Notes under the pieces: generated by a model | Told to the model about the DNA's origin: nothing | Database searches by the model: none | What the model saw: the letters and a program-made list of their open reading frames with translations, nothing else | Made by a program: the position numbers and the translations under genes | In this document: positions 5,239 to 48,494 of the stretch, one piece after another | Position numbering within the stretch: the stretch's first letter is position 1 | Layout: each line of letters starts with the position of its first letter | Assembly (NCBI GenBank): GCA_963665325.3 | Contig: CAXXWS020000001.1 | Location: 96,001-160,000 of the forward strand | Length of the DNA: 64,000 nucleotides | Reading direction: 5' to 3' | Source: Alphaproteobacteria bacterium | GTDB lineage: Bacteria > Pseudomonadota > Alphaproteobacteria > Bin95

Positions 5239-6840
5239 ATGAGAACCATGAAACATCTGGCCTTTGCGGCAATGGCCGCTTCGGCTCTGGCACTCGCAGG
5301 CTGCGGAGGTGGCGGCAGCTCCAGTAGCATGGTGGCGCCCACGACGCCCACCACCACCACGTCGGAGACGACGACGCCCACGTCGATGGAGCTCCTGCTG
5401 CCGAGCGGCAGCAACATGTATCTCGACGACAGCGACACGATGCTCGCCGACGGCACATTCACCGTCGCAGCCGGCACGACGGTGAACCGTGGCGCCTACG
5501 CCTTCACCTGCGGCGGCGACGAGGACTGCACGGTCACGGTCGCCGATGACGTAGTCACCGAGACGGGCGGTGTCACGGTCGACTACACGGCGACGGCGCA
5601 GGCCACCATCACCATGAAGATGATGATGGCGGACGAGACGAACACCGAGAAGGCGATCGGCCTGTCGAAGGCGCTGGCCGCCGCCACCGAGGACGACGAC
5701 AATGCTCCCACCGTATCCCGGGGGACGAGCGGCGCCGCCACTTTCAAGAAAGCCGGCTTCGAAGCGGGCGCGGCCCCGATGAGCATCGCCGGCTGGGAAG
5801 GCGCGACGCTGACCCAGAAGACCCAAAGCATCGTGGCCTATACGGAGATCGAGGCCGCGACGCGGATGGCGTTTACGAAGGTTTATAGTGCTACGGCAGC
5901 GGACAATCCCGGCGGACTTGCTTTCGCAGATGGCATGGTGACGATTCCCGCTGCCGCGTTGTCGTCCTCTCAAGCAGCCCTGCTGGACAAGACCCGTTTC
6001 CCGCAGAAGGGAAGCGCGGGTGCTGGAACCGAGACGTGGACCTACGTTGATGAAGCCGATGTCGATGTGGGCGAAAAGATGCACCCTCGGGAGTTCTCCG
6101 GTACCCTCCAAGGTGCGCGGGGCGATTACAGTTGCACCGGTGAGTGCTCCGTGGCGGTCACCGATGCCGGCAGCTACACGTTCGCAGGCACTTGGAATTT
6201 CGATCCCGACTCCTCCGCCCAGGCCGTCGTGACGGATCCCGACTACCTGACCTTCGGATGGTGGATCGACGAGAAGAAGAAGACCGCGGCAGGGGACTAT
6301 CCTTTCACGGTCAACACATTCGCCACCGGGTCAGCGGTGTTCCCGACGGCCGCCGATACCGACACTGGCGCTGTTGGCCTGGACACCCTTACGGGCGAGG
6401 TGGAATATAACGGCGTGGCGGCCGGCCTCTACGCGGTCAAGAATGTCGAGGGCGGGGAGATCGTTTCCGCCGCCCACGGAGCCTTCACCGCTGACGCCAG
6501 CCTGACCGCCGACTTCGAGGCAGGAGATGCCGGGTTCCTTTCCGGCAAGATCGACGGTTTCCAAGGCGGTATGGACATGTCGGGCTGGGAGGTGACGCTG
6601 CAGAAGTCCAACTTCGATACCGACGGCAGCCTGGCGGACCAAGACGACGCCATCAACGCCACCGGCATGATGGTCGCGGGCAAGATCGGCGACACCAAGA
6701 GCACGAACGGCATCTGGGATGTCAGTCTCCACGGGTCAGGCGCAGACGCCGCCGCGCCCAGCGGAATCGCCGGGACCTTCCGGGTCGACTTCACCAACGC
6801 CAATATCGCCGGAGCGTTCGGCGCAACGCGCGACAAGTAG
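5239..6840 (+). CDS. Surface lipoprotein with TbpB-like C-terminal beta-barrel (copy 1)
   Basis: Lipobox LAGC followed by Gly/Ser/Thr linker; DPDYLTFGWW, YNGVAAGLY, GAFTADASLTADF, IAGAFGATR; strong RBS. Confidence 0.8.
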   Translation: MRTMKHLAFAAMAASALALAGCGGGGSSSSMVAPTTPTTTTSETTTPTSMELLLPSGSNMYLDDSDTMLADGTFTVAAGTTVNRGAYAFTCGGDEDCTVTVADDVVTETGGVTVDYTATAQATITMKMMMADETNTEKAIGLSKALAAATEDDDNAPTVSRGTSGAATFKKAGFEAGAAPMSIAGWEGATLTQKTQSIVAYTEIEAATRMAFTKVYSATAADNPGGLAFADGMVTIPAAALSSSQAALLDKTRFPQKGSAGAGTETWTYVDEADVDVGEKMHPREFSGTLQGARGDYSCTGECSVAVTDAGSYTFAGTWNFDPDSSAQAVVTDPDYLTFGWWIDEKKKTAAGDYPFTVNTFATGSAVFPTAADTDTGAVGLDTLTGEVEYNGVAAGLYAVKNVEGGEIVSAAHGAFTADASLTADFEAGDAGFLSGKIDGFQGGMDMSGWEVTLQKSNFDTDGSLADQDDAINATGMMVAGKIGDTKSTNGIWDVSLHGSGADAAAPSGIAGTFRVDFTNANIAGAFGATRDK

Positions 6841-31810: not shown

Positions 31811-32143
31811 TTAGAGCCCCTCCGCGTACATGTCCCACGTCACGCCGTCCACACCGGCGGCAGCGTCCCGCTTCAGCGAGTGGAACGCCTCTTCCAGCAC
31901 AGGCACCGTGATGTGGTGCAGGAGCGCCACAAGACGCTCATCCGGGTTCCTCTTGGCAGCTTGCCGTATCCGGTCGGCCGCCTGTGTCACGCTTGCCCGC
32001 TTCTGCGCGCGGCGCGTGCTTTGGCTTTCCGGATTTCCCTCGGCCCCGGCCCTTGGCTCCACCGGTTCCGCCGGGCGTTGCCGCCCCTTGTTCGCCGGTC
32101 TCAAAGCTACTACTGCCGGGTCTGACTTCTTCAGGTCGTTCAT
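31811..32143 (-). pseudogene. Group II intron fragment (RNA domain III/IV region and RT N-terminus)
   Basis: KSDPAVVA..PANK...AEPVEPRAGAEGN typical of intron RNA; RIRQAAK...ALLHHIT...AF..LKRDAAAGVDGVTW RT domain 0. Confidence 0.8.
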
Positions 32144-33697
32144 CGCGCGGATGCGCTTCATCCGCATCCAGCGCCACTCGGGGCCGTAGGCGGCGCGGCG
32201 CAGCAGCGCCATCGCGTTGAGCGCCAGCGCCGCCAGCCACAGCCAGGCGGCGTTCGCCCCGAACCGCCCCGACGGCATCATCCCGGCGGCGAGGTCGGAC
32301 TTGAGCACCGCGTGCACCTCCTCGCCATGGCCGCAGCGTTGGTGGGCTGCCGCCACGACCTCGGCGGCTTCCATCACCTTCAGCCCGTTCGCCTTCTCCG
32401 CCCGGATTGCGTCGGGAGCCGGGAAGTTGGTCATATACGCCCTGATCCTGTAGGCGGGCCTGCCGTCCGTCGCCGGCAGGTCTCCCTCGTCCATGCCCAG
32501 CTTCCCGGGAAGCGCGCGCCGGGTCACGACGTAGCGGATCACATGGTGCGGCTTCAGCCCGTTGGCGGTTGCGGGGACGTAGGGCAGTTCGGCGCATTCG
32601 AGGTGGGGCTCGCCCGGCGCCGCCTGCGCACTCCGCGTCCCCGACACCGGGCGCCAGGCGTCTTCGGCGAGCCGCGCCACCTCCGCCATCAGCGGCTCCG
32701 AACGAGTGGCGCCGCAGATCAGCCCCACGGTCCCGAAGCGCCGCGTCTCCTCCCGGCGGAAGGCGGGGTCGTTGCAGGCGCGGATCACATCTTCCTGGTA
32801 GCCCGCCCCGTCGGTGCGAAGGGTGACCCGGCGCACAGCGCCGGGCAGTTGCAAGAGCGCCTCCTCCAGCGCCCGCAGGTTATCCATCGACGCCGGCACG
32901 TTGCCGTCACGGATCTCGAGCCAGGGCGCCATCCCGATCTCGGGGCAGAAGGCGACCAGCGGCTGGTAGCCCCGCTCGCCCGGAACCACCCGCTCCGCCG
33001 CCCGGTAGGTGTACAGGCATTCGCGCTTGCCGGACGCGATGATCGTCGCATCGAGGTCGATGGTCACCGACCCCGCACCTGCCTCCCGCACGCCTTCGGC
33101 GACCAGACGCCGCCCGACCTCCCGGAACAGCTCGTGGTGTTCGCTGTGCGCCGGGATGAACGCCTTGCCCTTCTCGCGCTCTACGTCATGCACGCCCGCG
33201 ACATGAAAGCGGTCCAGCCAGTCGCGCAGCGAGCGCGCCGAGGGAAAGCAGCGCTCCCGTCCGCCCCGGAAGCGCCGGGCGAGCGCGCGCCTCGACAGGC
33301 CGAGCAGCTTCGCCTCGAAGCGCCCGACCAGCGCACAAAGACCCGCATCGCCTTCCAGACGGTCGATGTCCGACACCCGGTCGAACCCCGCGACGTTGAG
33401 AAACAGGACGGCCAGGATCATCTGACCGTCGCTCCAGCCCTGCGAAGAGCTGCCATCCGACCCCGGCAGAGCCGCCAGAACGCGTGTCGCCGCCAGCAAC
33501 TCCAACAGCACCACCAGACCGCCCAGCGCCGTCGCAGGCGTCCCATCCCGGGCAACTTCAAGCTTGACCGGAGAGCGATAAGGCGTGACCATTTTCTTCA
33601 CCCGGTTGGTGACGCCCACAAGGGCGGGTTGCTGACACAACCCATTGCAAAAATGGCCCAACCGGGTGCTCAAACTTTTTCTGATCGCCGATCAGGG
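32144..33697 (-). mobile_element. IS1380-family element, 3' truncated (transposase from 33592)
   Basis: TALGGL, TIDLDAT, GYQPL, RDGNVPA, LRTDGAGY, E..HAVLK, PSGRFGANAAW; end CCCTGATCGGCGA at 33685-33697. Confidence 0.85.
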
Positions 33698-34262: not shown

Positions 34263-34455
34263 TCAGAGGCGCAATACGGGGATCATCTGGATGGGATCGG
34301 GGTGCGCCAGGGTTTCGAGGACATTCCAGCGCTGTTTTCGAGCGGTGGCGATGACGGATCGCAGGTTTGCGAAGTCGCGGGCGCCTTGCATCGAGCGGAA
34401 GCCGCCTGAGATTTTCTGGCGCAGCTTGCCCATTCGGAGGTCGCGCTCGGCCTCG
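34263..34455 (-). pseudogene. IS66-A transposase C-terminal part
   Basis: EAERDLRMGKLRQKISGGFRS continues SNN from the 37873 side. Confidence 0.88.
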
Positions 34456-34593
34456 TTATCCCCGATCACGGATTATTCCCGATTCGTCGCCGGACCCGCC
34501 GATTCGCGCAGCATCGAGCGCAAGATGCCGGAATAATCACAAGCTGTCTTCTCCCGCTGGCTCGCTCGCCAGCGTATGCAAAGGAGAAGACAG

Positions 34594-35844
34594 ATGTCGA
34601 CAACCCACTTCTTTCTCGCGGCAGGAGCGGGCTGGGATCGGCTGTATGCCGGCCCGCTCGCCAGCCATGTTGATGATTTTGCGGATTGGCTCGCGCATCA
34701 GGGCTACGCGCGGAAGACCGGACGCCGGAAGCTTCGATTGGTCGGCCAGTTCAGCCGCTGGCTGGGGGATCACGGGCTCAACCTTCCGGCGCTGGACGAG
34801 GTGCAACTCGAACGGTTTCGTAGCTTCCGATCACGCCTCGGCAAGTACACGGCCAACGTCATGTCCGACGGTCGGGAGCTGTTGACGTGGCTACGCGAGA
34901 CCGGCCGTCTGGCGCCGGTCGAGGCCGAACCGTCGTGCGATGACCCGGTTGGGGACGCCGTAGACCGGTATGAGCGCTTCCTCTTCGGCGAACGCGGCGC
35001 AAGCCTGAACACGGTACAGGCTTATCTGTCGACCGTTCGAACCTTTCTCGGCGATCGTTTCGAGTCCAGGCCTGCTGAGCTTGAGTCTCTGGGTATCCAG
35101 GACATCAACGGGTTCATTCTGCACTCGTGCCAGAGCCACAGTCCGGCGACGACACGGGTCCATGTTGCGGCTTTGCGCAGTTTCACGGGGTATCTGTATC
35201 GATCCGGGATCATGGCCACAGATATCGCCGACGGGATAGCCGGGGTCAGAACCTGGCGCCTGTCGAGCTTGCCCAAGGGGCTGGAGCCGGATCAGGTCAA
35301 AGCGGTACTCGCCAGTTGCGACCGCAGCACGGTCACTGGTCGGCGCGATTACGGCGTTCTGCTGTTGCTGGCGCTCCTCGGATTGCGGGCCTGTGAGGTC
35401 GTGCGCCTGACCCTGGACGACATCGACTGGGGCAACGCCGAGATTGCCGTGGTCGGCAAGGGTGGCCGACGCGATGTTCTGCCCCTGCCCCAAGAGGTCG
35501 GCGAAGCTCTCGTTGCGTATCTGCAAGCCGGTCGGCCGACTTGTGCGACACGCCGTCTGTTTGTGGGGCGCTATGCCCCGGTTCGCGGCTTTCAGTCGTC
35601 GTGCGCCGTTGTCAAAATCGTTCGTTATGCGTTCGCACGGGCCGGAATCGAACGACCGGGCAGGGGCGCGGCCCATCTTCTTCGTCATTCACTGGCAACC
35701 AGAATGCTGCGCAACGGAGCCTCGCTCGAGGAGATCGGGCAGATCCTGCGGCACCACAGTCCCGACAGCACGCGGATCTACGCCAAGGTCGATCTTGACG
35801 CCCTTCGCCCCCTGGCCCCGGCGTGGCCGGGAGGTGCGGCATGA
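34594..35844 (+). CDS. ritA: RIT tyrosine recombinase A
   Basis: RD...LLGLRACEV, GKG, HLLRHSLA, LRH...STRIYAKVD. Confidence 0.9.
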   Translation: MSTTHFFLAAGAGWDRLYAGPLASHVDDFADWLAHQGYARKTGRRKLRLVGQFSRWLGDHGLNLPALDEVQLERFRSFRSRLGKYTANVMSDGRELLTWLRETGRLAPVEAEPSCDDPVGDAVDRYERFLFGERGASLNTVQAYLSTVRTFLGDRFESRPAELESLGIQDINGFILHSCQSHSPATTRVHVAALRSFTGYLYRSGIMATDIADGIAGVRTWRLSSLPKGLEPDQVKAVLASCDRSTVTGRRDYGVLLLLALLGLRACEVVRLTLDDIDWGNAEIAVVGKGGRRDVLPLPQEVGEALVAYLQAGRPTCATRRLFVGRYAPVRGFQSSCAVVKIVRYAFARAGIERPGRGAAHLLRHSLATRMLRNGASLEEIGQILRHHSPDSTRIYAKVDLDALRPLAPAWPGGAA

Positions 35845-36770
35845 CAAGCCTTCGGACCCTGTGTGAGGACTATCTCGCCTTCCGCCGCTCCCTGGGGGCC
35901 AAGCTCCTGATGACGCGCGGGCTCCTGTTCCAGTTCATCGCGTTTCTGGCGCAGCGCGAGGCCCCGTTCATCACCGCCGCGCTGGCGATCGAGTGGGCCA
36001 GCAAGCCGGAAGGCGTCCAACAGGAATGGCGGGCGCGCCGCCTGTCGGAAGTCCGTCAGTTCGCCCGCTATGTTCACGCGGTCGATCCGCGCCACGAGGT
36101 CCCGCCTCAGCGGCTCCTGCCCTATCGGCGCCAGCGCCCCCAGCCCTACATCTACAGTGATGGCGAGATCGAAGACCTGATCGGTGCCGCACGTGATCTG
36201 TCCGGGCATCTCCGCCCGCGGACCTGCTCGACGATGCTGGGCCTGCTGGCGGTGACCGGCATGCGCAGCGGCGAAGTGGTCCGTCTCGACCGCGACGATG
36301 TCGATCTCCGGCAGGGGATCCTGACCATCCGCGAGAGCAAGTTCGGCAAGTCGCGTCTCAACCTCTGCCATGACACGACCGTGCAGGCCTTGAGCGAGTA
36401 CGCTGCCTGGCGGGACGAACGCTGTCCTCGTCCGCAATCTCCCGCCTTCTTCCTGAACGAACGCGCGAAGCGGATCGGCAAGGCAAGCTTCCGCAAGACG
36501 TTCAAGACCCTGACGTGTCAGACCGGTCTGCGGGACCCCGCGGCTTCCCATGGACCCCGCCTTCACGATCTCCGTCACACCTTCTCCGTAAGAACTCTGA
36601 TTCGGTGGTATCGCGACGGTGTTGACGTCGACCGCCACCTGCCACGTCTCTCCACCTGGCTCGGCCATAGCTGTATTGCCGATTCCTATTGGTATCTCAC
36701 CGCAGTTCCCGAACTCATGGCGCTTTCCGCCTGGCGTCTCGATGAATGGCAGGGGAGGCACAGCTCATGA
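35841..36770 (+). CDS. ritB: RIT tyrosine recombinase B
   Basis: TGMRSGE, SKFGKSR, RLHDLRHTF, LSTWLGH...YWYL; ATGA overlap. Confidence 0.9.
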   Translation: MTSLRTLCEDYLAFRRSLGAKLLMTRGLLFQFIAFLAQREAPFITAALAIEWASKPEGVQQEWRARRLSEVRQFARYVHAVDPRHEVPPQRLLPYRRQRPQPYIYSDGEIEDLIGAARDLSGHLRPRTCSTMLGLLAVTGMRSGEVVRLDRDDVDLRQGILTIRESKFGKSRLNLCHDTTVQALSEYAAWRDERCPRPQSPAFFLNERAKRIGKASFRKTFKTLTCQTGLRDPAASHGPRLHDLRHTFSVRTLIRWYRDGVDVDRHLPRLSTWLGHSCIADSYWYLTAVPELMALSAWRLDEWQGRHSS

Positions 36771-37765
36771 GTGCGATCGCCGATTTTGCCAAGCTGCTGG
36801 CCCTGTTCTTCTCCCGGTACCTCATGCAGCAACGTCAGGTCAGCCCCAACACCATCGCCAGCTACCGCGACACGTTCCGGCTTCTCGTCAACCATGCCAA
36901 CAGGGTCCTCGGCAAGTCGCCACAGGACCTGTCTTTCGAGGATCTCGACGCCGACTTCATCGGTGACTTCCTCAATCATCTCGAGCACGAGCGCGGCAAC
37001 GATGTCCGTACCCGCAATGCCCGCCTGGCGGCAATCCGGTCTCTGTTCGGTTATGTCGCCCTGCACGAGCCGCAGCATGCAGCCCTGGCTCAACGGGTCC
37101 TGGCCATACCGACCAAACGCTATACCCGACGAGAGGTCGACTTCCTCAATCGCGCGGAGAGCGAAGCTCTCCTGCGGGCACCGGATCGGACCGGTTGGGT
37201 TGGGCGACGCGACTACTGCTTGCTGTTGGTGGCGCTGCAGACCGGCATGCGGAGCTCGGAGATCATCGCCCTGCGCCGCACCGATGTCCGCCTTGGTGAC
37301 GGCGCTCATGTCCGCTGTCACGGCAAGGGGCGGAAGGAGCGCTCGATCCCGTTGCGCCGGGACTCGGTGGCGGCCCTCCGTGCGTGGTTGAAAGAGCGCG
37401 GCGGCGAGCCCTATGACCGGATCTTCCCGAACCAGCGCAGCAGACCGCTCACGCATGGCAGTTTCGACTATCTCCTGGCTCGGAACCTCGCCGTCGCGCG
37501 GGCGGCCTGCACGTCGCTGGCGGACAAACGGGTCACGCCCCATACCCTGCGCCACAGCGCCGCCATGGAACTGCTTCAAGCTGGCGTTGACCGTGCAACC
37601 ATCGCGTTGTGGCTCGGGCATGAATCCGTCGAGACCACCTACATCTATTTGCATGCCGATCTCGAACTGAAGGAGCGGGCAATGGCCAGAACGACCCCTG
37701 CCGGGACCCCAATGAGAAGGTACGAACCGCAGGACAGTGTCCTGGCGTTCCTGAACAGCTTGTGA
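36767..37765 (+). CDS. ritC: RIT tyrosine recombinase C
   Basis: SPNTIASYRD, TRNARLAAIRS, GKGRKER, TPHTLRHS, WLGHESVETTYIY. Confidence 0.9.
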   Translation: MSAIADFAKLLALFFSRYLMQQRQVSPNTIASYRDTFRLLVNHANRVLGKSPQDLSFEDLDADFIGDFLNHLEHERGNDVRTRNARLAAIRSLFGYVALHEPQHAALAQRVLAIPTKRYTRREVDFLNRAESEALLRAPDRTGWVGRRDYCLLLVALQTGMRSSEIIALRRTDVRLGDGAHVRCHGKGRKERSIPLRRDSVAALRAWLKERGGEPYDRIFPNQRSRPLTHGSFDYLLARNLAVARAACTSLADKRVTPHTLRHSAAMELLQAGVDRATIALWLGHESVETTYIYLHADLELKERAMARTTPAGTPMRRYEPQDSVLAFLNSL

Positions 37766-37872
37766 TTATTCCGGCATCTTGCGCTCGATGCTGCGCGAAT
37801 CGGCGGGTCCGGCGACGAATCGGGAATAATCCGTGATCGGGGATAACGAGGCTTATTTCAGATCTGGAATAA

Positions 37873-39227
37873 GCCTCGTTGTTGGAGAAGGGTGTTCGCG
37901 GATCGGTGAGGAAGCGCAGGCACCCCTCCTTGTACTTCTGGAGCCGGAGGGCGAGGTTGTGACCGATGCGGCGCTTTTGTCGTCCACGCTTTCCGGTCCG
38001 GAGCGGTGGCATTTCTTCGTGAGAGGCGATGGCCCGCTCAAGGATGCGGTCCCAGGCTTGCGAGATGCGGGCCACCAGTGAGGCGGGCACGTCGCGATCA
38101 TTGTTGCGGGCGAAGCGGGCGGCTCTGTTGGCACGGGTGAGGAGCCGGTATGTGCTCGTTGCCCAGTCTTCCTTCTCGATCTCGATGAGGGCCTGGAGCT
38201 CACGCAGGTGATGGGCGTTGCAGGCCCCGTGACGCACGCCCTCGAGAGCGAAGTAGGTGGCGTAGTCGTCATGGATGACGATGCCGTTGAGCTTCTCGTC
38301 GATGTGGCTGCGCCCGGTGGCGACGCGCAGGATGGTGAGCAACGGGGTGCACAGCACATGGAGCCACCGGGTCCGGGCGGCGATGCGGATGCCGGTCTCG
38401 TCGAGGTGTTTGACCGGGGCTGCGGTGCGGATGATCTCCGCGAGGCGATCGAGGAAGCCTTCGAAGCGCCGGGCGGTGCGCCTGCCCATGGCGACGATGG
38501 TGGCTGTTGAGAGCTTGACCGCGAAGAGGTCGCTCATGACCTCGGCGACGCGCTTCTCGGGAATGAACTGAGCGTGCAACAGGTAGGTCACCCACGCGGT
38601 GATGCGCGGCCCATACTGGACCGGAGCGCTCACGCCGTTCGGGAAGGCGGCTGTCGTCACGGTGCCGCAGGCGGCGCAGAGGCAGCGATGGCCGCGATGT
38701 TCGGTGACCTCGAGGGGCTGCGGCTCGGGCACATCGAAGACCTGCCGGCAGACGGGGGCTCCGTGACGGTCAGCGTCCGACAGCGGCGCGCCGCAGCCCT
38801 CACAAGCGCACGGATCATGATCGACGACATGGTCGGGCGTCGCGGTCCGTTCCAGGGTGGTTCCCTTGTGGCCCGGCTGGCCGCCACTGGGCCTGTCGGA
38901 CTTGCCGCGCTGGCTCCGGGTGCGCTTCTCCCGGTCACCGCTCTTCTTCTTCAGGCCGTCGCTGGCCGGCGGCCTGGAGCTGGTGGTGCTGTCGAGCGCG
39001 GCGCGGCGCTCGAGTTCGGCGATCCGCTCGCGCAAGCGGGCGTTCTCCTGCTCCAGCGCGTCGTTCTCCTTGACCAGGGCCGCGCTCAGGCGCAGCAACC
39101 TCTGGCCCCATTCCCGAATGGCTTTGACGGCGGTCATCGCGAAGGATTGTGGGGTAAAAAGGTCCTGCAGGCACGCGAAGGCCTCGTCGTGGGCAGCGAG
39201 GTCCTCGTGCCAGCGCGACACTGTCAC
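37873..39227 (-). pseudogene. IS66-A transposase N-terminal part
   Basis: DSTTSSRPPASD, GGQPGHKG, zinc finger, HLDETG, CNAHHLREL, PFSNNEA at the break. Confidence 0.9.
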
Positions 39228-39892
39228 GAACCCTCGTCGGCCTCGACGGCCATGATCGCGGCCAGCACCGCCAGGCGTTCGCCCGCCGGCATGGCCTCGT
39301 AGCGCCGGCCCCAGTTGGCCGCCTTGCGCTTGATGGACTGGCGTTCGGTGAAGTTCCGGCCGGCGAAGCTCGCCCAGTGCACCCGGTCAGGCGCGAAGTT
39401 GAACCACACGACCTCGGTCCGCACCTGGGCCTGGGTCGTCACCTGCAGCGCCAGCCGGCGCCAGCCCGCCAGCAGCTCGTCATAGAGCGCAGACGGGTGG
39501 CCCGAGACCATCACCTGGCAGGGCAGACCCTTGAGCAGTTCGAGGAGCGCGACGTGGTCGGCTTCCTCATACTCGAAGCGGTAGCGCTGCGACGAACGAC
39601 GGGTCGCGTGCAGATAGGGCGGATCGCTGTAGACCAGCTCCGGGCCCAGGAACGGGAACGAGGCCAGGAAGGAATGGGCGCAGCCGTGCACCAACTCTAC
39701 CGGGTAGTCGCAGCCAAAGGCCTCAAGCGCCCGCTCGTCGCGGTCGATCCCGATCGAGCGCATGGCCGCCGGCTTGCGCTTCATCAGCGCCCCGCCTCCA
39801 AGATGGCTCTCGATATAGACAGAGTGCGGCGGCATCAGCGCAATCAGCGCCTGGCTCAGACCGGTCGTCGCCTTCGACCCGAAATACCCCAA
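39224..39892 (-). CDS. Dam-like (D12 class) DNA adenine methyltransferase
   Basis: YFGSK, PPHSVYIESHLGGGA, DPPY, EVVWFNF; stop overlaps transposase start. Confidence 0.85.
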   Translation of the reverse strand: MGYFGSKATTGLSQALIALMPPHSVYIESHLGGGALMKRKPAAMRSIGIDRDERALEAFGCDYPVELVHGCAHSFLASFPFLGPELVYSDPPYLHATRRSSQRYRFEYEEADHVALLELLKGLPCQVMVSGHPSALYDELLAGWRRLALQVTTQAQVRTEVVWFNFAPDRVHWASFAGRNFTERQSIKRKAANWGRRYEAMPAGERLAVLAAIMAVEADEGS

Positions 39893-40338
39893 CGGCTGCT
39901 CCTCTCATGCGAGAGTGCAACCCATAGTTGCGTGGGCCTATACAGTCAAGAGAGGAAGGGGATCGACGACCCGCCGACCGCAAAACGGCGCCCACGGCCA
40001 ACAAAACTCAGAACGCACTCAGAGCGCGCGGCAGGCTACCTGGGTAGTTACAATGGCAGTTTCGTAGTAATTGCGGAAGCACTGGGTGCCGATGGATGGC
40101 AGCAGTCTGTTGATATCGGTCATCATCGGCATCCAGTTCTAGGTAAAGCCGGCAAACTGAACCGAGAGCGCCGCGTATCGGGGACGACCGGTCGTGCAGG
40201 GAGACTGGTTGCGGGTCAGTGCCATTGGTGTTCGGAAATTATGTAGGAAACCTGGTATTAGCCATTCGGCTTCGGGTTAATTCCGGCAGGGGCCTGATCG
40301 TAGTACGCGAGGCGAAGTGGTGCGGGTGCAGGGGGTTG

Positions 40339-41280
40339 CTACTGCATCTTGTCGAGACCGAGCTCGAGTGAGCACGTGCCGACTGCGCGACCGGCGTTGA
40401 GGCGTTCTTGCGAAAACGCGTGTCTGAGGTCGGTAGAGACGATCAGAGAGAAGTGGCTCGGGTGGTCCATTCTGTCGTAGGCGCAGTCACACATTTTGAT
40501 GATCTGGGGGCGCTGGACGTCGGTCAATGGAATGCCTTTTCGCAGTTTGGATTGCTCGTCGAAGAAGGTAAGGCAGGTGTCGTTCACGAATTCCTCGCGT
40601 CGCCGTTGTTGTTCAATGACGGCCATTTCTCGAGCGAAGCCGGATGAGGAAGGGTGGTTTCCTGTTTTCGCGAGAGACTGCAGTTGGTCGGGTGGGACGA
40701 GTTCGACAACCGAATAAATCTTCGACTCTACTGCATCGGTGATTTGGTAGTCTCCGATGCCGAGGGCGACCTGGAGGACCGTGTAATTGGGTTCGAGGAA
40801 GTAGAGGACGAGATAGTCCGCAATGTCGAACAGGCAATTGTTCCGGAATGCGGTGATGGAGGCTATCCAGTCGTCGATGACCGCCGGATGGTCGGGACTG
40901 CGCCAGTTGAAGTCGTAGACGTAATCGGAGTGTGTGAGGATCCGGTCCTTCAGCTCAGCGTATACATCGGGGTGTTCGTCAGGTCCTGCCAGAATGAACG
41001 GGATGGCAGCGATGTAGGCGGGGGCATAAGGGACTTCGTGTTCGGAGAGCCCGTCCATGGCATTGCCTTTGTTGAACAGGGCGCCGAAAGTTCCGACCGC
41101 CTCTAGCTTTGGCGCGCATTGGTCACGCTCTGCGAGCAGGCGCTCGCTGTCGTCTTGGATTCTCTCCCGACGTTGTTGTTCGCTTTCGGATTTTGCCGCT
41201 TCTGCTTTTCGTTGCGAATCGGCTGAAGCTGGAAGGACAGCAAGTAGAGAAAGGGCACAGGTTAGAAGGAGACGCTTCAT
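40339..41280 (-). CDS. Secreted hypothetical protein
   Basis: Signal peptide MKRLLLTCALSLLAVLPASA; several Cys; lower GC than flanks. Confidence 0.7.
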   Translation of the reverse strand: MKRLLLTCALSLLAVLPASADSQRKAEAAKSESEQQRRERIQDDSERLLAERDQCAPKLEAVGTFGALFNKGNAMDGLSEHEVPYAPAYIAAIPFILAGPDEHPDVYAELKDRILTHSDYVYDFNWRSPDHPAVIDDWIASITAFRNNCLFDIADYLVLYFLEPNYTVLQVALGIGDYQITDAVESKIYSVVELVPPDQLQSLAKTGNHPSSSGFAREMAVIEQQRRREEFVNDTCLTFFDEQSKLRKGIPLTDVQRPQIIKMCDCAYDRMDHPSHFSLIVSTDLRHAFSQERLNAGRAVGTCSLELGLDKMQ

Positions 41281-41347
41281 TTTCTGGACCTTGGCTAGAT
41301 GTGCTGGGAGGTAATCCTTCGTTCGTCGGGTGATGGGGCTGGAGATT

Positions 41348-42229
41348 TCATCGATTGAGGGTTCGCTTCCAGTCTTTTCGGAGGGGTCGCAGCCAGATGT
41401 CCTTCCTGGGCTCGGCCCGTTTCATGTGGGTGTCGTAGCGTCCCCGGCCCTGGGTGGTCCCGACCCGTATCCAGCCGGAAGCCCTGTAGACGGCGCCGGT
41501 ATAGCGCGGGGTCTCGACGAAGGTCTCGATGAGCACGGGGGTGGTGTTGTAGCGTTCGGTCCAGTCGAGGGGCAGGCGGCGGCGCACGAGGGCGAGGATG
41601 TGCGAGCCGAGGTTGGGGATCTCGACCCATGGCAGGATGAGGAAGCGGGGGTTGTCGACCACCAGCGGCAGGTTCTTCTCGCGCATCTCGGGGGTCCATC
41701 CGATGAAGTCGTCGCGCGGGGCGAGCTTCCAGGCGGCGGTGGAGAAGCCGAGCATGGCGATGGGCCAGCCGTTCCGATCGTGGACGGCGTAGCGCATCTG
41801 GGCGCCGACCAGGGTCTTGTATCCGAGGTAGTGGTAGCGGGCGACGAACTCGTTCCACAGCCTGCCCTCGCGGGTCTCGCGCACGACGGTGCGCATCTCC
41901 AGCGGGCGGACCTCGTCGAGGGTGGTCGGAGCGGGGAACAGCGGCGGCTCGGTGTCCGGTCCGAAGACGATGGGCCTGGGCCGGCCCTGCTTTCCCCTCG
42001 GCGGCGGCAGGACGATCACGCCGTCGCGGTGCATGGCGAGCATGGTGACCCGGGCCATCATGTCCTTGAGCCCGCCGTCGGGCTTGAGCCAGCCGATGCG
42101 CCGGCAGAACTCTCGGGACAGGGCGGCTCGGGTGGGCTGCGGATCGGCGGCGATCAGGGCGCGCAGCAGCGCCATCTCGTCGGTGGTGAAGTCGCGGCCG
42201 TAGTAGCGGCACTCGATCGTGCCGGTCAT
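41348..42229 (-). CDS. DUF4338 (Druantia DruA-like) protein
   Basis: WNEFVARYHYLG, RDDFIGW, RFLILPWV.IPNLGS, ETFV, G..YRASGW..VG.TQGRG; ATGA-coupled to transposase. Confidence 0.85.
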   Translation of the reverse strand: MTGTIECRYYGRDFTTDEMALLRALIAADPQPTRAALSREFCRRIGWLKPDGGLKDMMARVTMLAMHRDGVIVLPPPRGKQGRPRPIVFGPDTEPPLFPAPTTLDEVRPLEMRTVVRETREGRLWNEFVARYHYLGYKTLVGAQMRYAVHDRNGWPIAMLGFSTAAWKLAPRDDFIGWTPEMREKNLPLVVDNPRFLILPWVEIPNLGSHILALVRRRLPLDWTERYNTTPVLIETFVETPRYTGAVYRASGWIRVGTTQGRGRYDTHMKRAEPRKDIWLRPLRKDWKRTLNR

Positions 42230-42490
42230 CCCGGCGTCGTGAACTTGCGCTTGCGCGCCTCGCTCATCGTCCAGGGCAGCCAGGGCGACAGGTCGTCCGG
42301 CGGCTTGCCGCCATTCTTCGCGCACGCCGTCAGCCATGCCTCCAGCCAGCGCAACACGTCGATGCCGTGCATCGAGAGCGTGCCCACCACGGAGTGCATG
42401 ATCGCGGTGAACTTCGCGCCGTCCTCGCTGTTCGAACCGAAGCTCAATCGGCGCCGGATGACCGCGCAGCGCAGTCCGCGCTCGGCGATG
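42226..42490 (-). pseudogene. IS66-B transposase C-terminal part
   Basis: IAERGLRCAVIRRRLSFGSNS...WLPW. Confidence 0.88.
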
Positions 42491-42571
42491 TTATCCCCGA
42501 TCACGGATTATTCCCGATTCGTCGCCGGACCCGCCGATTCGCGCAGCATCGAGCGCAAGATGCCGGAATAA

Positions 42572-43570
42572 TCACAAGCTGTTCAGGAACGCCAGGACAC
42601 TGTCCTGCGGTTCGTACCTTCTCATTGGGGTCCCGGCAGGGGTCGTTCTGGCCATTGCCCGCTCCTTCAGTTCGAGATCGGCATGCAAATAGATGTAGGT
42701 GGTCTCGACGGATTCATGCCCGAGCCACAACGCGATGGTTGCACGGTCAACGCCAGCTTGAAGCAGTTCCATGGCGGCGCTGTGGCGCAGGGTATGGGGC
42801 GTGACCCGTTTGTCCGCCAGCGACGTGCAGGCCGCCCGCGCGACGGCGAGGTTCCGAGCCAGGAGATAGTCGAAACTGCCATGCGTGAGCGGTCTGCTGC
42901 GCTGGTTCGGGAAGATCCGGTCATAGGGCTCGCCGCCGCGCTCTTTCAACCACGCACGGAGGGCCGCCACCGAGTCCCGGCGCAACGGGATCGAGCGCTC
43001 CTTCCGCCCCTTGCCGTGACAGCGGACATGAGCGCCGTCACCAAGGCGGACATCGGTGCGGCGCAGGGCGATGATCTCCGAGCTCCGCATGCCGGTCTGC
43101 AGCGCCACCAACAGCAAGCAGTAGTCGCGTCGCCCAACCCAACCGGTCCGATCCGGTGCCCGCAGGAGAGCTTCGCTCTCCGCGCGATTGAGGAAGTCGA
43201 CCTCTCGTCGGGTATAGCGTTTGGTCGGTATGGCCAGGACCCGTTGAGCCAGGGCTGCATGCTGCGGCTCGTGCAGGGCGACATAACCGAACAGAGACCG
43301 GATTGCCGCCAGGCGGGCATTGCGGGTACGGACATCGTTGCCGCGCTCGTGCTCGAGATGATTGAGGAAGTCACCGATGAAGTCGGCGTCGAGATCCTCG
43401 AAAGACAGGTCCTGTGGCGACTTGCCGAGGACCCTGTTGGCATGGTTGACGAGAAGCCGGAACGTGTCGCGGTAGCTGGCGATGGTGTTGGGGCTGACCT
43501 GACGTTGCTGCATGAGGTACCGGGAGAAGAACAGGGCCAGCAGCTTGGCAAAATCGGCGATCGCACTCAT
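42572..43570 (-). CDS. ritC: RIT tyrosine recombinase C
   Basis: Identical translation to 36767-37765. Confidence 0.9.
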   Translation of the reverse strand: MSAIADFAKLLALFFSRYLMQQRQVSPNTIASYRDTFRLLVNHANRVLGKSPQDLSFEDLDADFIGDFLNHLEHERGNDVRTRNARLAAIRSLFGYVALHEPQHAALAQRVLAIPTKRYTRREVDFLNRAESEALLRAPDRTGWVGRRDYCLLLVALQTGMRSSEIIALRRTDVRLGDGAHVRCHGKGRKERSIPLRRDSVAALRAWLKERGGEPYDRIFPNQRSRPLTHGSFDYLLARNLAVARAACTSLADKRVTPHTLRHSAAMELLQAGVDRATIALWLGHESVETTYIYLHADLELKERAMARTTPAGTPMRRYEPQDSVLAFLNSL

Positions 43571-44496
43571 GAGCTGTGCCTCCCCTGCCATTCATCGAGA
43601 CGCCAGGCGGAAAGCGCCATGAGTTCGGGAACTGCGGTGAGATACCAATAGGAATCGGCAATACAGCTATGGCCGAGCCAGGTGGAGAGACGTGGCAGGT
43701 GGCGGTCGACGTCAACACCGTCGCGATACCACCGAATCAGAGTTCTTACGGAGAAGGTGTGACGGAGATCGTGAAGGCGGGGTCCATGGGAAGCCGCGGG
43801 GTCCCGCAGACCGGTCTGACACGTCAGGGTCTTGAACGTCTTGCGGAAGCTTGCCTTGCCGATCCGCTTCGCGCGTTCGTTCAGGAAGAAGGCGGGAGAT
43901 TGCGGACGAGGACAGCGTTCGTCCCGCCAGGCAGCGTACTCGCTCAAGGCCTGCACGGTCGTGTCATGGCAGAGGTTGAGACGCGACTTGCCGAACTTGC
44001 TCTCGCGGATGGTCAGGATCCCCTGCCGGAGATCGACATCGTCGCGGTCGAGACGGACCACTTCGCCGCTGCGCATGCCGGTCACCGCCAGCAGGCCCAG
44101 CATCGTCGAGCAGGTCCGCGGGCGGAGATGCCCGGACAGATCACGTGCGGCACCGATCAGGTCTTCGATCTCGCCATCACTGTAGATGTAGGGCTGGGGG
44201 CGCTGGCGCCGATAGGGCAGGAGCCGCTGAGGCGGGACCTCGTGGCGCGGATCGACCGCGTGAACATAGCGGGCGAACTGACGGACTTCCGACAGGCGGC
44301 GCGCCCGCCATTCCTGTTGGACGCCTTCCGGCTTGCTGGCCCACTCGATCGCCAGCGCGGCGGTGATGAACGGGGCCTCGCGCTGCGCCAGAAACGCGAT
44401 GAACTGGAACAGGAGCCCGCGCGTCATCAGGAGCTTGGCCCCCAGGGAGCGGCGGAAGGCGAGATAGTCCTCACACAGGGTCCGAAGGCTTGTCAT
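43567..44496 (-). CDS. ritB: RIT tyrosine recombinase B
   Basis: Identical translation to 35841-36770. Confidence 0.9.
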   Translation of the reverse strand: MTSLRTLCEDYLAFRRSLGAKLLMTRGLLFQFIAFLAQREAPFITAALAIEWASKPEGVQQEWRARRLSEVRQFARYVHAVDPRHEVPPQRLLPYRRQRPQPYIYSDGEIEDLIGAARDLSGHLRPRTCSTMLGLLAVTGMRSGEVVRLDRDDVDLRQGILTIRESKFGKSRLNLCHDTTVQALSEYAAWRDERCPRPQSPAFFLNERAKRIGKASFRKTFKTLTCQTGLRDPAASHGPRLHDLRHTFSVRTLIRWYRDGVDVDRHLPRLSTWLGHSCIADSYWYLTAVPELMALSAWRLDEWQGRHSS

Positions 44497-45743
44497 GCCG
44501 CACCTCCCGGCCACGCCGGGGCCAGGGGGCGAAGGGCGTCAAGATCGACCTTGGCGTAGATCCGCGTGCTGTCGGGACTGTGGTGCCGCAGGATCTGCCC
44601 GATCTCCTCGAGCGAGGCTCCGTTGCGCAGCATTCTGGTTGCCAGTGAATGACGAAGAAGATGGGCCGCGCCCCTGCCCGGTCGTTCGATTCCGGCCCGT
44701 GCGAACGCATAACGAACGATTTTGACAACGGCGCACGACGACTGAAAGCCGCGAACCGGGGCATAGCGCCCCACAAACAGACGGCGTGTCGCACAAGTCG
44801 GCCGACCGGCTTGCAGATACGCAACGAGAGCTTCGCCGACCTCTTGGGGCAGGGGCAGAACATCGCGTCGGCCACCCTTGCCGACCACGGCAATCTCGGC
44901 GTTGCCCCAGTCGATGTCGTCCAGGGTCAGGCGCACGACCTCACAGGCCCGCAATCCGAGGAGCGCCAGCAACAGCAGAACGCCGTAATCGCGCCGACCA
45001 GTGACCGTGCTGCGGTCGCAACTGGCGAGTACCGCTTTGACCTGATCCGGCTCCAGCCCCTTGGGCAAGCTCGACAGGCGCCAGGTTCTGACCCCGGCTA
45101 TCCCGTCGGCGATATCTGTGGCCATGATCCCGGATCGATACAGATACCCCGTGAAACTGCGCAAAGCCGCAACATGGACCCGTGTCGTCGCCGGACTGTG
45201 GCTCTGGCACGAGTGCAGAATGAACCCGTTGATGTCCTGGATACCCAGAGACTCAAGCTCAGCAGGCCTGGACTCGAAACGATCGCCGAGAAAGGTTCGA
45301 ACGGTCGACAGATAAGCCTGTACCGTGTTCAGGCTTGCGCCGCGTTCGCCGAAGAGGAAGCGCTCATACCGGTCTACGGCGTCCCCAACCGGGTCATCGC
45401 ACGACGGTTCGGCCTCGACCGGCGCCAGACGGCCGGTCTCGCGTAGCCACGTCAACAGCTCCCGACCGTCGGACATGACGTTGGCCGTGTACTTGCCGAG
45501 GCGTGATCGGAAGCTACGAAACCGTTCGAGTTGCACCTCGTCCAGCGCCGGAAGGTTGAGCCCGTGATCCCCCAGCCAGCGGCTGAACTGGCCGACCAAT
45601 CGAAGCTTCCGGCGTCCGGTCTTCCGCGCGTAGCCCTGATGCGCGAGCCAATCCGCAAAATCATCAACATGGCTGGCGAGCGGGCCGGCATACAGCCGAT
45701 CCCAGCCCGCTCCTGCCGCGAGAAAGAAGTGGGTTGTCGACAT
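44493..45743 (-). CDS. ritA: RIT tyrosine recombinase A
   Basis: Identical translation to 34594-35844. Confidence 0.9.
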   Translation of the reverse strand: MSTTHFFLAAGAGWDRLYAGPLASHVDDFADWLAHQGYARKTGRRKLRLVGQFSRWLGDHGLNLPALDEVQLERFRSFRSRLGKYTANVMSDGRELLTWLRETGRLAPVEAEPSCDDPVGDAVDRYERFLFGERGASLNTVQAYLSTVRTFLGDRFESRPAELESLGIQDINGFILHSCQSHSPATTRVHVAALRSFTGYLYRSGIMATDIADGIAGVRTWRLSSLPKGLEPDQVKAVLASCDRSTVTGRRDYGVLLLLALLGLRACEVVRLTLDDIDWGNAEIAVVGKGGRRDVLPLPQEVGEALVAYLQAGRPTCATRRLFVGRYAPVRGFQSSCAVVKIVRYAFARAGIERPGRGAAHLLRHSLATRMLRNGASLEEIGQILRHHSPDSTRIYAKVDLDALRPLAPAWPGGAA

Positions 45744-45907
45744 CTGTCTTCTCCTTTGCATACGCTGGCGAGCGAGCCAGCGGGAGAAGACAGCTTGTGA
45801 TTATTCCGGCATCTTGCGCTCGATGCTGCGCGAATCGGCGGGTCCGGCGACGAATCGGGAATAATCCGTGATCGGGGATAACGAGGCTTATTCCAGATCT
45901 GAAATAA

Positions 45908-47778
45908 GCCTCGTTGTTGTCCATGGGGATGAAGGGCTTGTCGAGGAAGACGCACAGCCCCTCGCGATGCTTGAGCAGTCTGCGCAGCGGCTTGGCCTTG
46001 CGCGACCCGTCCGACAGGCTGGCCAGCTCCGCTTCGGCGTCCGCGAACAGGCGCTCGACGGCGGTCTTCAGGGCAGCCTGCGCCGCGTCGAAGGCCGGCG
46101 TCTGGCGTTCGGGTGCGCGAGCGGGGTCGTAATGTTCCAGCCGCTCCTTGTTCAGCCGGTAGATATCCGCGATCCGCTCGACCCAGCCATCGCTCCAGGC
46201 AGAGAGCCGGGCATGGCCGACCACGCTCTGGACGAAGTCGCGCCTCTGGTGGGCCCAGCACCAGCACAGGATCACCTTGCCGCCGAGTTCGCGCGCCAGC
46301 TTCCTGTAGGCGCTGTAGCGGTCGCAGACCACATACACGGTGCAGGCGGTGTCGCCGAACAGGCTCTTTGCGACCTCGGCGCTGCGCGAGGGGTCGATGA
46401 GGTAGTAGACTGCATCCTCGCTGACCGAGATCCACAGCCAGGCGCGGCTCGACCGGCCGTTGCGGCGGTACTCCTGCACCCGCCAGCCGGTCTCGTCGGC
46501 ATGGCGCAGCGTCGCCTTGTTCTGGTGCGCGAGGATCGCTTCGGCGAGCGGCTCGAACAGCGGCACGAAGCGCTTGATGCTGTCGGCCAGGGTTCCCGGC
46601 GAGATCGCCAGCCCCTGGTCCCCCATCCAGGCCGCGATCCGGTTCAGCGGGCGCAGGCAGACACAGTGCTCGAAGAGAAAGCGCGTCCAGACACCGATCC
46701 CGTAGGACGTGTTGTCGAACAGCCGCTCCGGCGGGGGCGCGGTGACTTCCAGGGGCGAGGACGCGCAGTCGCAACCCCGGCGCCAGCGTGTGCGGAGGAT
46801 CCTGCGAATGTGGGCCTTGACCTCGATCTCGACGAGGCTCGTGGAACGCTCGCCGTTGGCGATATAGGGCTTGCCGCAGCAGGAGCAGGTGCGCGCGGCC
46901 TTCGGCGGATTGCGCCGTTCCTTCTTCTCGCCGAGCCCGGGCCGCGGGGTGCGGCCGTGGCCCGGCGCGCCGCGCTGCTGGCCGCGCTTGCGCCCCGTAC
47001 CCTTCTTCTTCTGCTTCTCGCTCTTGCTCCCGAACAGCGCCTTCGACAAGGCGCTTCGGGTCGATTGCAGTCGGGCTATCCGGGCTTCCAGTCCCGTGTT
47101 CCGGGCCCGCAGCGCCTCTATCTTCTTGCCCTGGCGGGCGTTCGCCCTGCGCAGAGACGCGAGCTCGTCCTTGCGCTCCCGCGCGCGTTCCAGCGCCTTG
47201 TGCAACCGGGCATTCTTCCGCGTCAGGGAAGCGACTTCCCGGCGCAGCGTCCCGATCGTGTCCTTGTCGGGCTTCCGTGTCGGCGCGGTCTTGGGCGGCC
47301 GGACGGCAGCCGTATCCTTCGCGGCTTCCGACGCCCGCAAATCCTGGCGCAACCGGACGACTTCCATGCGCAGCGACGTGATCGTGCCGCGCTTGCGCGA
47401 ATCGACGCCGGCCTCCGAAAGCAGCTTCTCCAGCCGCGCCACTTCCGACTGGTGGAACAGCGCGTCCTTCGCCGCGCGCCGGACCTCCTTCACCTCCTCG
47501 ACCGCCGCCTTGAGCTTGTCCCGGCTCTGGTCGAGGTTCCACTTCAGCGAACCGGCCTGGGAACGGGCGGTCCGCTCCGCCACAAGCAACGCTTCGGCGC
47601 GCGCTTCCGCCGCGTCCGCCCGCGCCCGCTCCTGCTCCGCGCGGGCCTCCGCCTGTTCGCACAGGGACTGCCAGTCGGGAGGCTCGCACACCGATGCCGC
47701 CATGGAAGGCGACCAGAGCCCGTCGTCGCTCTCGGCCAGCGTCAGGGTCGCCGCAAAATCCTCGTCGCGCATCGCCAT
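45908..47778 (-). pseudogene. IS66-B transposase N-terminal part with long coiled-coil extension
   Basis: LFGSKSEK, RGQQRGAPGHGR, CSCCG, HADETGW, CDRYSAY, CWAHQRRDF, PMDNN at the break. Confidence 0.9.
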
Positions 47779-47855
47779 GGGCGCGACGATAGCGAATCCC
47801 GGCCGGCGTTACCCGAGCCGCGCGCATGGCGCCCAAAACGAACTCGGACTGCCCA

Positions 47856-48494
47856 TCACCCGACGAACGAAGGATTACGCTGGGAGTGGTTGGGGGCGGA
47901 CGTGGTTGGAGTCGGATTCCACATACGGGCGAGAAACTCGCGTGCCTCGATGGCGATGGCCGTGGTGTACATCGCCGTTGTCGCTATGTCGGTATGACCC
48001 AGCACGGCTGCGATGGTGGGCAGCGGCACGCCGGCCGTGACGGCGGCGATTCCGAAGGCGTGGCGTAATCCCTTCGGACAAGCCTGCGGTCCGGAGATCC
48101 CGGCGCGATCCATAACGGCGACGATGCGCCGGTGGCCGGTTGCGCGCGACCAGGGCCAGAGCGGCTCGCCGGCGCGCCGGGCCGGGATGCCGCGCAGCCC
48201 GTGGACGAGTTCGAGCGCGCGGAGGGTCTCGGGCGGCAGAGGGACCTCGCGCCAGTGTTCGGCGCGCCTCTTGAGGCTGGATATCCGGATGGCGCTGGCG
48301 TCCAGGTCGATATCGGTCGGTCTCAGTGCGAGGGCCTCGGAGATCCGGGCTCCGCTGTGCGCCAGGGTCAGGGCGAAGGTCTGATGCTCGGGCTTCGGGG
48401 CTCGCGCAGCGGCCTGCAGGAACCGCTCGCGCTCCTCCCGGGTCAGGTATTTCCGGCCCTGGCGGTCGAACAGGGAGATGGCGTTTCCGGTCAT
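47856..48494 (-). CDS. Small catalytic-domain tyrosine recombinase; last codons replaced by the IS66-B end
   Basis: RKYLT, SGARISEAL, LKRR, PKGLRHAFG, LGH...TTAMY. Confidence 0.85.
   Translation of the reverse strand: MTGNAISLFDRQGRKYLTREERERFLQAAARAPKPEHQTFALTLAHSGARISEALALRPTDIDLDASAIRISSLKRRAEHWREVPLPPETLRALELVHGLRGIPARRAGEPLWPWSRATGHRRIVAVMDRAGISGPQACPKGLRHAFGIAAVTAGVPLPTIAAVLGHTDIATTAMYTTAIAIEAREFLARMWNPTPTTSAPNHSQRNPSFVG

Follow-up and report, generated by a model that had tools for sequence, protein, structure and literature searches.

Two RIT copies in IS66-family transposase genes are exact permutations of one another and point to a joined-ends form that may open at either of two sites

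RIT elements are described as three adjacent tyrosine-recombinase genes, ritA, ritB and ritC, between terminal inverted repeats (TIRs) (Van Houdt et al. 2012, PMC3414803), spanning ~3.4-3.7 kb, present as identical copies within a genome and in some cases lodged in transposase genes (PMC3414803). The same text raises the question of how three recombinases serve one four-strand reaction (PMC3414803), and the Rit proteins are elsewhere classed among the simple, Xer-like recombinases, with a tandem pair of core-binding domains in RitA and an additional helix at the C terminus of RitC (PMC8138268). A palindrome has been noted in RIT elements without interpretation, and target specificity, the empty site and movement were listed as not tested in 2023 (PMC10214605). 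No tested RIT mechanism was found in the searchable literature, which did not cover Ricker et al. 2013, a paper that may already describe parts of the anatomy; PMC12306157 was set aside because "RIT" there denotes another thing. Here we analyze two RIT copies in a 64,000-nt stretch of an alphaproteobacterial genome (the window, G000:C2:96001-160000, from an assembly of 5 contigs with no N), to whose positions all plain coordinates refer. The two copies are exact permutations of one another, and it is quite likely, in our estimation, that the element moves via a joined-ends form, most simply a circle, that can be opened at either of two neighboring sites and carries 6-bp hexamers with it.

The closest functional analogues of such an element appear to be Tn554 and the SE elements, rather than Tn916. 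In SE/Tn554 insertions, one junction keeps the 6 bp of the target, whereas the other receives the 6-bp spacer that the joined form carried (PMC10214605). The RIT copies resemble these elements in having several tyrosine recombinases, no target duplication and an apparent 6-bp spacer at one junction, a pattern with which copy 2 of the window and insertions in two other genomes (G062 and G063) agree when native hexamers are taken from homologues, not from exact alleles. They differ in that Tn554 and SE have one joint site, unlike ends and a polarity that is fixed with respect to the carried 6 bp, with no linker or second site described, and in gene content: one ordinary and one large recombinase with TnpC/Srap, as opposed to the three RIT recombinases of 315-422 aa. 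Tn916 and CTnDOT employ a tyrosine recombinase that makes staggered cuts, and non-homologous overlap bases from the flanks are carried in the circle to the new junctions, much as we propose for RIT; unlike RIT, they are large, conjugative elements with a single integrase and Xis, one joint, no long perfect TIRs and no linker. A gene set of Tn916 type (single Int, Xis, conjugation genes) is absent from the 3.4-kb unit of the window, which contains ritABC only and no additional open reading frame (ORF). The initial annotation had likened the junctions to the coupling sequences of Tn916-type transposons; its idea of carried overlap bases is retained, but the SE/Tn554 rule suits the junctions more closely.

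The window copies form perfect inverted repeats of 3.4 kb spaced 4.6 kb apart, and a repeat search of the window finds 34450-37847 and 42490-45887 to be 100% complementary across 3398 nt. Together with their linkers and hexamers, copy 1 occupies 34450-37878 and copy 2 occupies 42485-45913, the unit length is 3423 nt, and no further copy or linker was found in the five contigs of G000. Gene order, domains, TIRs and a size of ~3.5 kb place the element in the RIT family, as judged from sequence. Three overlapping ORFs each match Pfam Phage_integrase (E = 1.4e-24, 1.2e-17 and 5.5e-33), and by-eye comparison with the catalytic R...HxxR...Y motif finds HxLRH plus a downstream tyrosine in each of RitA, RitB and RitC; in RitA, Pfam places a single SAM-like domain at residues 129-210 and assigns nothing to the first 128 residues. 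The TIR is perfect over 98 nt in copy 1 (hexamer included) and 93 nt in copy 2. Both insertions interrupt NNxAER codons of IS66-family transposase genes (DDE_Tnp_IS66), and the parts lie as follows.

34263-34455, minus strand: IS66-family transposase gene A (target 1), 3' piece; frame EAERDLRMGK..., stop at 34263-34265; ends in GCCTCG, the hexamer of the linker-free junction (HL)
34456-34547, plus strand: ritA-proximal TIR of copy 1; tip reads TTATCCCCGATCACGG (repeat search)
34576-35844, plus strand: ritA of copy 1, 422 aa; Phage_integrase and SAM-like domain; HxLRH...Y
35823-36770, plus strand: ritB of copy 1, 315 aa from the earliest start codon; Phage_integrase
36746-37765, plus strand: ritC of copy 1, 339 aa; Phage_integrase
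37755-37846, plus strand: ritC-proximal TIR of copy 1 (repeat search)
37847-37878, plus strand: inner hexamer (Hi), 20-bp linker TTATTTCAGATCTGGAATAA and outer hexamer (Ho) of copy 1 (junction letters, arm analysis)
37879-39227, minus strand: IS66-family transposase gene A, 5' piece; DDE_Tnp_IS66, DUF6444
42226-42490, minus strand: IS66-family transposase gene B (target 2), 3' piece; ends in GCGATG (42485-42490), HL of copy 2
42491-45881, minus strand: core of copy 2, reversed (repeat search, homology to copy 1)
42491-42582, minus strand: ritC-proximal TIR of copy 2 (repeat search)
42572-43591, minus strand: ritC of copy 2 (ORF)
43567-44514, minus strand: ritB of copy 2 (ORF)
44493-45761, minus strand: ritA of copy 2 (ORF)
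45790-45881, minus strand: ritA-proximal TIR of copy 2 (repeat search)
45882-45913, plus strand: inner hexamer, reversed linker TTATTCCAGATCTGAAATAA and outer hexamer, the last putatively imported, of copy 2
45914-47778, minus strand: IS66-family transposase gene B, 5' piece; DDE_Tnp_IS66, E = 2.7e-47

At its left junction, copy 1 reads GCCTCG (34450-34455) and then the core, TTATCCCC...GGGGATAA (34456-37846), while its right junction runs through CGAGGC (37847-37852), TTATTTCAGATCTGGAATAA (37853-37872) and GCCTCG (37873-37878) into TTGTTGGAG. Copy 2 opens with GCGATG (42485-42490), continues with the identical core in reverse (42491-45881), and closes with CGAGGC (45882-45887), TTATTCCAGATCTGAAATAA (45888-45907) and GCCTCG (45908-45913) ahead of TTGTTGTCC. 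The initial annotation's reading of these junctions is exact. Rejoining the flanks with a single hexamer leaves open frames, ...SNNEAER... at target 1 and, as annotated, ...DNNIAER... at target 2; two hexamers would add two residues, and none would remove two.

The relationship between the copies is that of a rotation. The unit 42491-45913 (3423 nt) equals the reverse complement of 34456-37878 rotated by 32 nt (6+20+6), with 0 mismatches, and at the sequence level this bears out the initial annotation's point that circularizing copy 1 and opening it at its other junction would give exactly copy 2. A model in which the core alone inverts leaves two letters mismatched to copy 2, with 0 differences in the rest of the unit, because the window linker has one marked base pair: related elements usually have the perfect palindrome TTATTCCAGATCTGGAATAA as their linker, from which the window linker deviates at one position, in one half.

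A joined-ends form would account for these features in the following manner. The ends would be bridged by tip, 6 bp, 20-bp linker, 6 bp and tip, with each hexamer lying between a TIR tip and a linker half, such that the bridge would hold two complete core-type sites. Either site would recombine with a target, here the NNxAER codons of IS66-family transposase genes; as the target is asymmetric, the linker would always come to lie on the NN side, and the site opened would decide which rit end the linker touches, ritC in copy 1 and ritA in copy 2. The hexamers would be the overlaps between staggered 6-bp cuts, with no match to the target required. After insertion, the target hexamer would stand at the linker-free junction and the element hexamer between linker and target, and hexamers would thereby be carried from site to site and turned over. 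The anatomy, the exact permutation, its recurrence elsewhere and an outer hexamer of foreign origin are shown by the sequences. From these we infer the joined or circular molecule, the staggered 6-bp cleavage and any assignment of Rit proteins to arms.

The linker itself lends substance to the notion of two sites. In core sites of the Xer/dif type, two inverted arms of ~11 bp surround a 6-bp centre, and the RIT hexamers likewise sit between inverted arms of ~10-11 bp, for example ATCTGGAATAA / ATCGGGGATAA around GCCTCG; in ATCTGGAATAA-GCCTCG-TTATCCCCGAT, the arms agree at 9/11 positions after one is reverse-complemented. Across nine families, linker halves match their own TIR tip at 109/176 positions, compared with 584/1408 in a control that paired tips with the linkers of other families. 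The two halves of the window linker match the tip at 7/10 and 8/10 positions, and arms match at 7-9/10 in six of the nine families, at 6/10 in G231 and at 6-7/10 in G408; two families with 18-bp linkers match poorly (2/9) when no offset is allowed. Because its halves match the element's own tip, the 20-bp linker reads as two recombinase-binding arms set back to back, and joined ends of the form tip-6-linker-6-tip would hold two complete core-type sites. Unlike Xer/dif, the two RIT sites share the 20-bp block, their centre tolerates 1-4 target mismatches, and the reaction would serve transposition, not dimer resolution.

Independent genomes provide replicates of the window pair. Two copies in G231 are 100% identical over 3737 nt and carry their linkers at opposite ends; in element orientation, their hexamer-linker-hexamer strings agree except for one letter of the target-touching hexamer. 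A second illustration comes from G285, whose copies are 99.3-99.8% identical in the pairs a/b, b/c and b/d. The linker lies at the ritA end in copies a, b and c and at the ritC end in copy d. In element orientation, copies a and d share the string ATGGGG-linker-CCGTAT, which in target orientation becomes ATACGG-linker-CCCCAT for a and ATGGGG-linker-CCGTAT for d. Hexamer, linker and hexamer thus flip jointly with the core and keep their side of the target, as in the window, and given this hexamer swap, inversion of the core alone would not yield the G285 arrangement. The correlation between core and linker orientation to which the initial annotation drew attention is therefore repeated in both genomes.

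A broader survey drew on several searches. A linker scan of one genome per species, with two marker positions left free, returned 18 stretches, seven in RIT context and the other 11 AT-rich and probably chance matches. A second scan, of metagenome contigs, gave 28 stretches, with Rit genes in L112 only and with L114 and L118 representing the L046 locus again. A RitB search of 401 genomes of the same class (E <= 1e-40) found matches in 10 genomes, G000 counted; 13 loci were examined and 8 parsed, and L140, L141, L144, L145 and L146 are left out of the table. Of these, L144 has no TIR inside its cut contig, and L145 and L146, also on cut contigs, have a palindrome on the ritA side. The table also omits loci of G011, G042 and G006 from the related-genome search. 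In 60 related genomes, there was no near-full match to the element; L047-L049 (G011) were dropped as parts of a repeat >5.8 kb and L050-L053 and L055 for want of a clear TIR pair, and L054 (G005) is the sole parsable RIT among the loci taken from these genomes. In a plasmid collection, the element was matched twice, weakly and in part only (5% and 2% of query), and the target 2 flanks not at all.

Homologous rit trios with identical gene order occur in 7 other loci, and protein identity to the window ranges from 82-97% in G061, G063 and G064 to 24-30% in a Clostridia element. G005 and the G000 chromosome hold more distant RITs; in G000, a second, distant family at G000:C1:447319-451054, with Rit proteins 35-36% identical, follows the same design: CAGTGG, tip...tip, CCGCTG, a 20-bp near-palindromic linker adjoining ritC, and CAGCGG. 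All 16 parsed insertions, from 11 genomes, read tip-6-linker(18-20)-6, the spacing being exactly 6 in every case. The linker adjoins ritC in nine and ritA in seven, and the tabulation of hexamers and linker orientation that the initial annotation had proposed accordingly returns a single design with the linker at either end. HL equals Ho in 6/15 insertions and differs in 9/15, and Ho is matched by the complement of Hi in 8/16; these frequent inequalities mean that the hexamers are not target duplications, and a 6-bp target duplication is ruled out. A crossover at the linker centre is likewise ruled out, as the flanks have no linker halves.

The target sites bear on both the orientation of the linker and the provenance of the hexamers. 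In every readable IS66-NNxAER insertion (copies 1 and 2, G061-G064 and the G065 locus), it is the NN (TTGTTG) side that holds the linker, so the same-side rule first seen in the window pair holds throughout. A different RIT family, at L135 (G285:C2), lies inside an IS66 tnpB gene: its flanks, 2001-2150 and 5599-5749, match positions 1-25 and 33-81 of the Pfam TnpB_IS66 profile, and the adjoining IS66 transposase gene is intact. IS66 is thus a target of a second RIT lineage as well. Pfam gave no usable match for the longest frames abutting the G005, G231, G438, G408 and Clostridia insertions, and among the other families the G285 target was the only one to be named.

Intact relatives of target 2 were collected from the 60 related genomes and G000, with two partial alignments, two no-hit loci and the window's own locus dropped. 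All 25 intact homologous junctions hold exactly one hexamer, in nine sequences (CCGCGG and GCGACA seven times each, GCGAGA four times, GCAAAA twice, and CTGCGG, GCGCGG, GCCGCA, GCGGTG and CAAACA once each), and GCCTCG is found in 0/25. The nearest have GCGAGA and GCGACA, at identities of 82.5% and 80.5% across the first 400 nt. Because none of these junctions has GCCTCG and the nearest resemble GCGATG, the outer GCCTCG of copy 2 is, on this comparison, foreign to the target 2 family, into which GCGATG fits. The initial annotation's suggestion that this hexamer was imported from the copy 1 site is thereby supported as to importation, but a third donor would serve equally well as copy 1.

At target 1, four intact relatives in G042 (82% identical) read GCCTCA. 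Public-run evidence came from Logan assembled contigs of four runs at 90% likeness, where stretches without cover are uninformative. Contigs from X1, X15 and X19 skip exactly 3423 nt at target 1 and retain a single GCCTCG, the shorter side of the joint comprising 209 letters in X1, 152 in X15 and 40 in X19, the last with 8 letters shared across the joint; these are related intact alleles from other organisms and do not show that the element was excised in this strain. A RIT ~97% identical to that of the window, in runs X15, X3 and X19, has T for A at position 37849, giving the inner hexamer CGTGGC, a further hexamer variant within an end that is conserved apart from it.

Further insertions allow native and carried hexamers to be told apart. 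The linker-free junction of G062, GCGGCG, equals that of an intact paralogue (80% identical), and its linker side reads GCCTCG. That of G063, GCGCGG, equals the closest intact homologue, L075 of G016 (flanks 95.7% and 91.5% identical), and its linker-side hexamer, CCGCGG, is native to five further IS66 copies of that genome. G061 carries the native AGATGG at both positions. Among the three informative insertions (copy 2, G062 and G063), the linker-free hexamer matches the nearest intact homologue in 3/3 and the linker-side hexamer in 0/3. When the window and its closest relatives, G062-G064, are compared, the linker-adjacent hexamers vary at 2-4/6 positions, against <=1 in the 20-bp linker and 1 in the 24-nt tip. 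The variation affects both inner and outer hexamers, with 1-4 mismatches between HL and Ho, and the element-borne GCCTCG, CCGCGG and GCAAAA are native hexamers of other IS66 copies. Such turnover would be in keeping with carried overlaps and the use of both sites, unlike point mutation of a fixed end.

Several other explanations merit consideration. An in-place double inversion, in which the core flips between the TIR-tip sites and the linker between the sites that flank it, would dispense with a joined form. The sites at HL and Hi are inverted, as the two around the linker would also be, and where the linker is perfectly palindromic and the hexamers are identical, the product would be indistinguishable from a permutation. 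Two events would be needed instead of one, however, to arrive at what in the window is an exact rotation; in G285, the hexamers are swapped and complemented along with the core, so both inversions would be required again, and the scheme offers no account of element-borne hexamers that equal the native hexamers of other IS66 copies. We regard it as quite unlikely. An assembly or polishing artefact, whereby the core orientation or two linker letters are wrong in one copy, might be suspected where perfect inverted repeats of such length lie so close together and the linker regions are mutually reverse complementary, but the assembly has few contigs and no N, each copy is flanked by matching halves of its own target gene, and the same alternation appears in the independent assemblies of G231 and G285, making an artefact exceedingly unlikely.

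The outer hexamer might instead be a fixed part of the element, with exchange at a point (G|TT), nothing carried and differences arising through ordinary mutation. The window copies do share outer and inner hexamers, GCCTCG is also the outer hexamer in G062, and the static junctions of a single copy suit either reading. Yet among the closest relatives, the hexamers vary far beyond the adjoining linker and tip, the variants exactly match native IS66 target hexamers, and hexamers differ between the near-identical copies a-d within G285, all of which renders a fixed hexamer very improbable. Another alternative concerns the shape of the intermediate, which could be linear or hairpin-ended, or a replicative figure-eight or tandem with the ends only transiently together. 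Nielsen et al. 2017 (PMC5737581) reports that RIT coverage rose after exonuclease with no circle junction by paired-end mapping, and proposes hairpin-structured intermediates from the terminal palindromes. To yield the permutation, the two ends must nonetheless at some point have been connected via the linker, and a joint of 98+20+98 nt, being a near-perfect palindrome, would be hard to detect by short paired reads, which may explain the missing circle junction in that study. We consider a non-circular intermediate quite unlikely.

A joined-ends form openable at either site therefore remains our favored explanation, and a number of observations weigh against it. The initial annotation's circular intermediate with two alternately used sites draws support from the permutation and from linkers found at either end, but its circle junction has not been seen: the read search extended to the assembled contigs of the four runs, in which rare forms would be invisible and no joined-ends molecule appeared, and among the RIT-type matches of the genome and metagenome scans, none has a tip on both sides of the linker. 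Within the window, the case against simple inversion depends on a single marked base pair of the linker. Two RIT loci, L140 and L141, show no clear tip-6-linker-6 by eye. An exact uninterrupted allele of target 2 was not found in the relatives searched, the nearest being 82.5-84% identical, and the native status of GCGATG is deduced from relatives 72-84% identical. For G063, the native hexamer is taken from one homologue in another genome, and five paralogues in the same genome carry CCGCGG. The 3/3 hexamer bias falls short of significance (one-sided p = 0.125). Lastly, a 500-bp fragment ~600 nt past the window end (G000:C2:160586-161086), 94-98% identical to the target 1 flanks, has GCA (3 nt) in place of the GCCTCG or GCCTCA of intact relatives, giving NNAER; simple excision under the model would not produce it, and the model provides no explanation for it.

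The direction of movement is a separate matter. Transfer from copy 1 to copy 2, as the initial annotation proposed, is compatible with the junctions but unproven, because GCCTCG flanks the linker on both sides in both copies and a third donor would fit equally well. If an SE-like rule applied, copy 2 would have received its linker-side hexamer from the left flank of copy 1, whereas movement in reverse would have placed GCGATG at copy 1; a Tn916-like rule, or a third donor, would lead to identical junctions.

Some loci depart from the common arrangement. At L046/L062 (G065:C31:3819-3838), the linker and GCGATG stand beside the DNN codons of a degenerate IS66 gene, and on the other side of the linker there is no TIR, only TATTCA followed by unrelated sequence; a TIR tip lies on another contig, at G065:C12:12871-12894. 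The structure is repeated in three assemblies (also L114 and L118) and may represent a left-behind linker or a rearrangement. L112, a metagenome contig of 3626 nt, has a Clostridia-type RIT with linkers at 25-44 and 3559-3578 and with both flanks of the type normally beside the linker, which could reflect homologous recombination between two inverted copies or a chimeric assembly. Six metagenome loci (L117, L123, L124, L127, L130 and L132) are ~100-nt palindromes centred on the linker variant TTATTGCAGATCTGCAATAA or ...TGTAATAA, with 6-nt blocks adjoining it; a search with the window proteins found no Rit-like genes in them.

The surroundings of the window copies are themselves rich in transposons. 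The region around target 1 is dense in mobile elements, with an ORF of 620 aa just upstream (31811-33673, minus strand) that has a DDE_Tnp_1_4 transposase domain. Target 2 lies in IS66-family element B (41311-47878), whose perfect 27-bp inverted repeats resemble element ends; its second ORF (41348-42337, minus strand) carries a DruA (Druantia) domain (E = 4.6e-39), and this part has counterparts of 90% identity at three further sites in the genome (C5 and C3).

41311-41337, no strand: 27-bp terminal repeat of IS66-family element B; partner 47852-47878; presumed IS end
47852-47878, no strand: other 27-bp terminal repeat of IS66-family element B (repeat search); presumed IS end

RIT elements are common on bacterial chromosomes and plasmids, and in the literature searched their movement has been neither reproduced nor explained. 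The anatomy outlined here yields a testable model of which bases are exchanged, what the joined form would look like and how it might escape short-read detection. Relative to the RIT literature consulted, the new components are the palindrome as two core sites, the alternating linker, the hexamer turnover and the IS66 NNxAER target. The arrangement tip-6-linker-6 also provides a simple rule by which the RIT copies of any genome can be parsed for orientation and history, and the window shows a family of mobile elements exploiting the conserved codons of a different one, IS66. More tentatively, and with somewhat less than even confidence, we suggest that these features reflect an undescribed transposition mode of the widespread RIT class, comprising a palindromic two-site bridge, entry in either orientation, hexamers as a record of targets, recombinases that share the arm types among them, and lineages specialized on IS66 codons. 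If so, a division of the arm types (TIR tip or linker arm, left target arm and right target arm) among the recombinases would explain the trio, and the RIT lineages specialized on IS66 codons, whether at the transposase NNxAER or the tnpB site, would be parasites of another transposon family.

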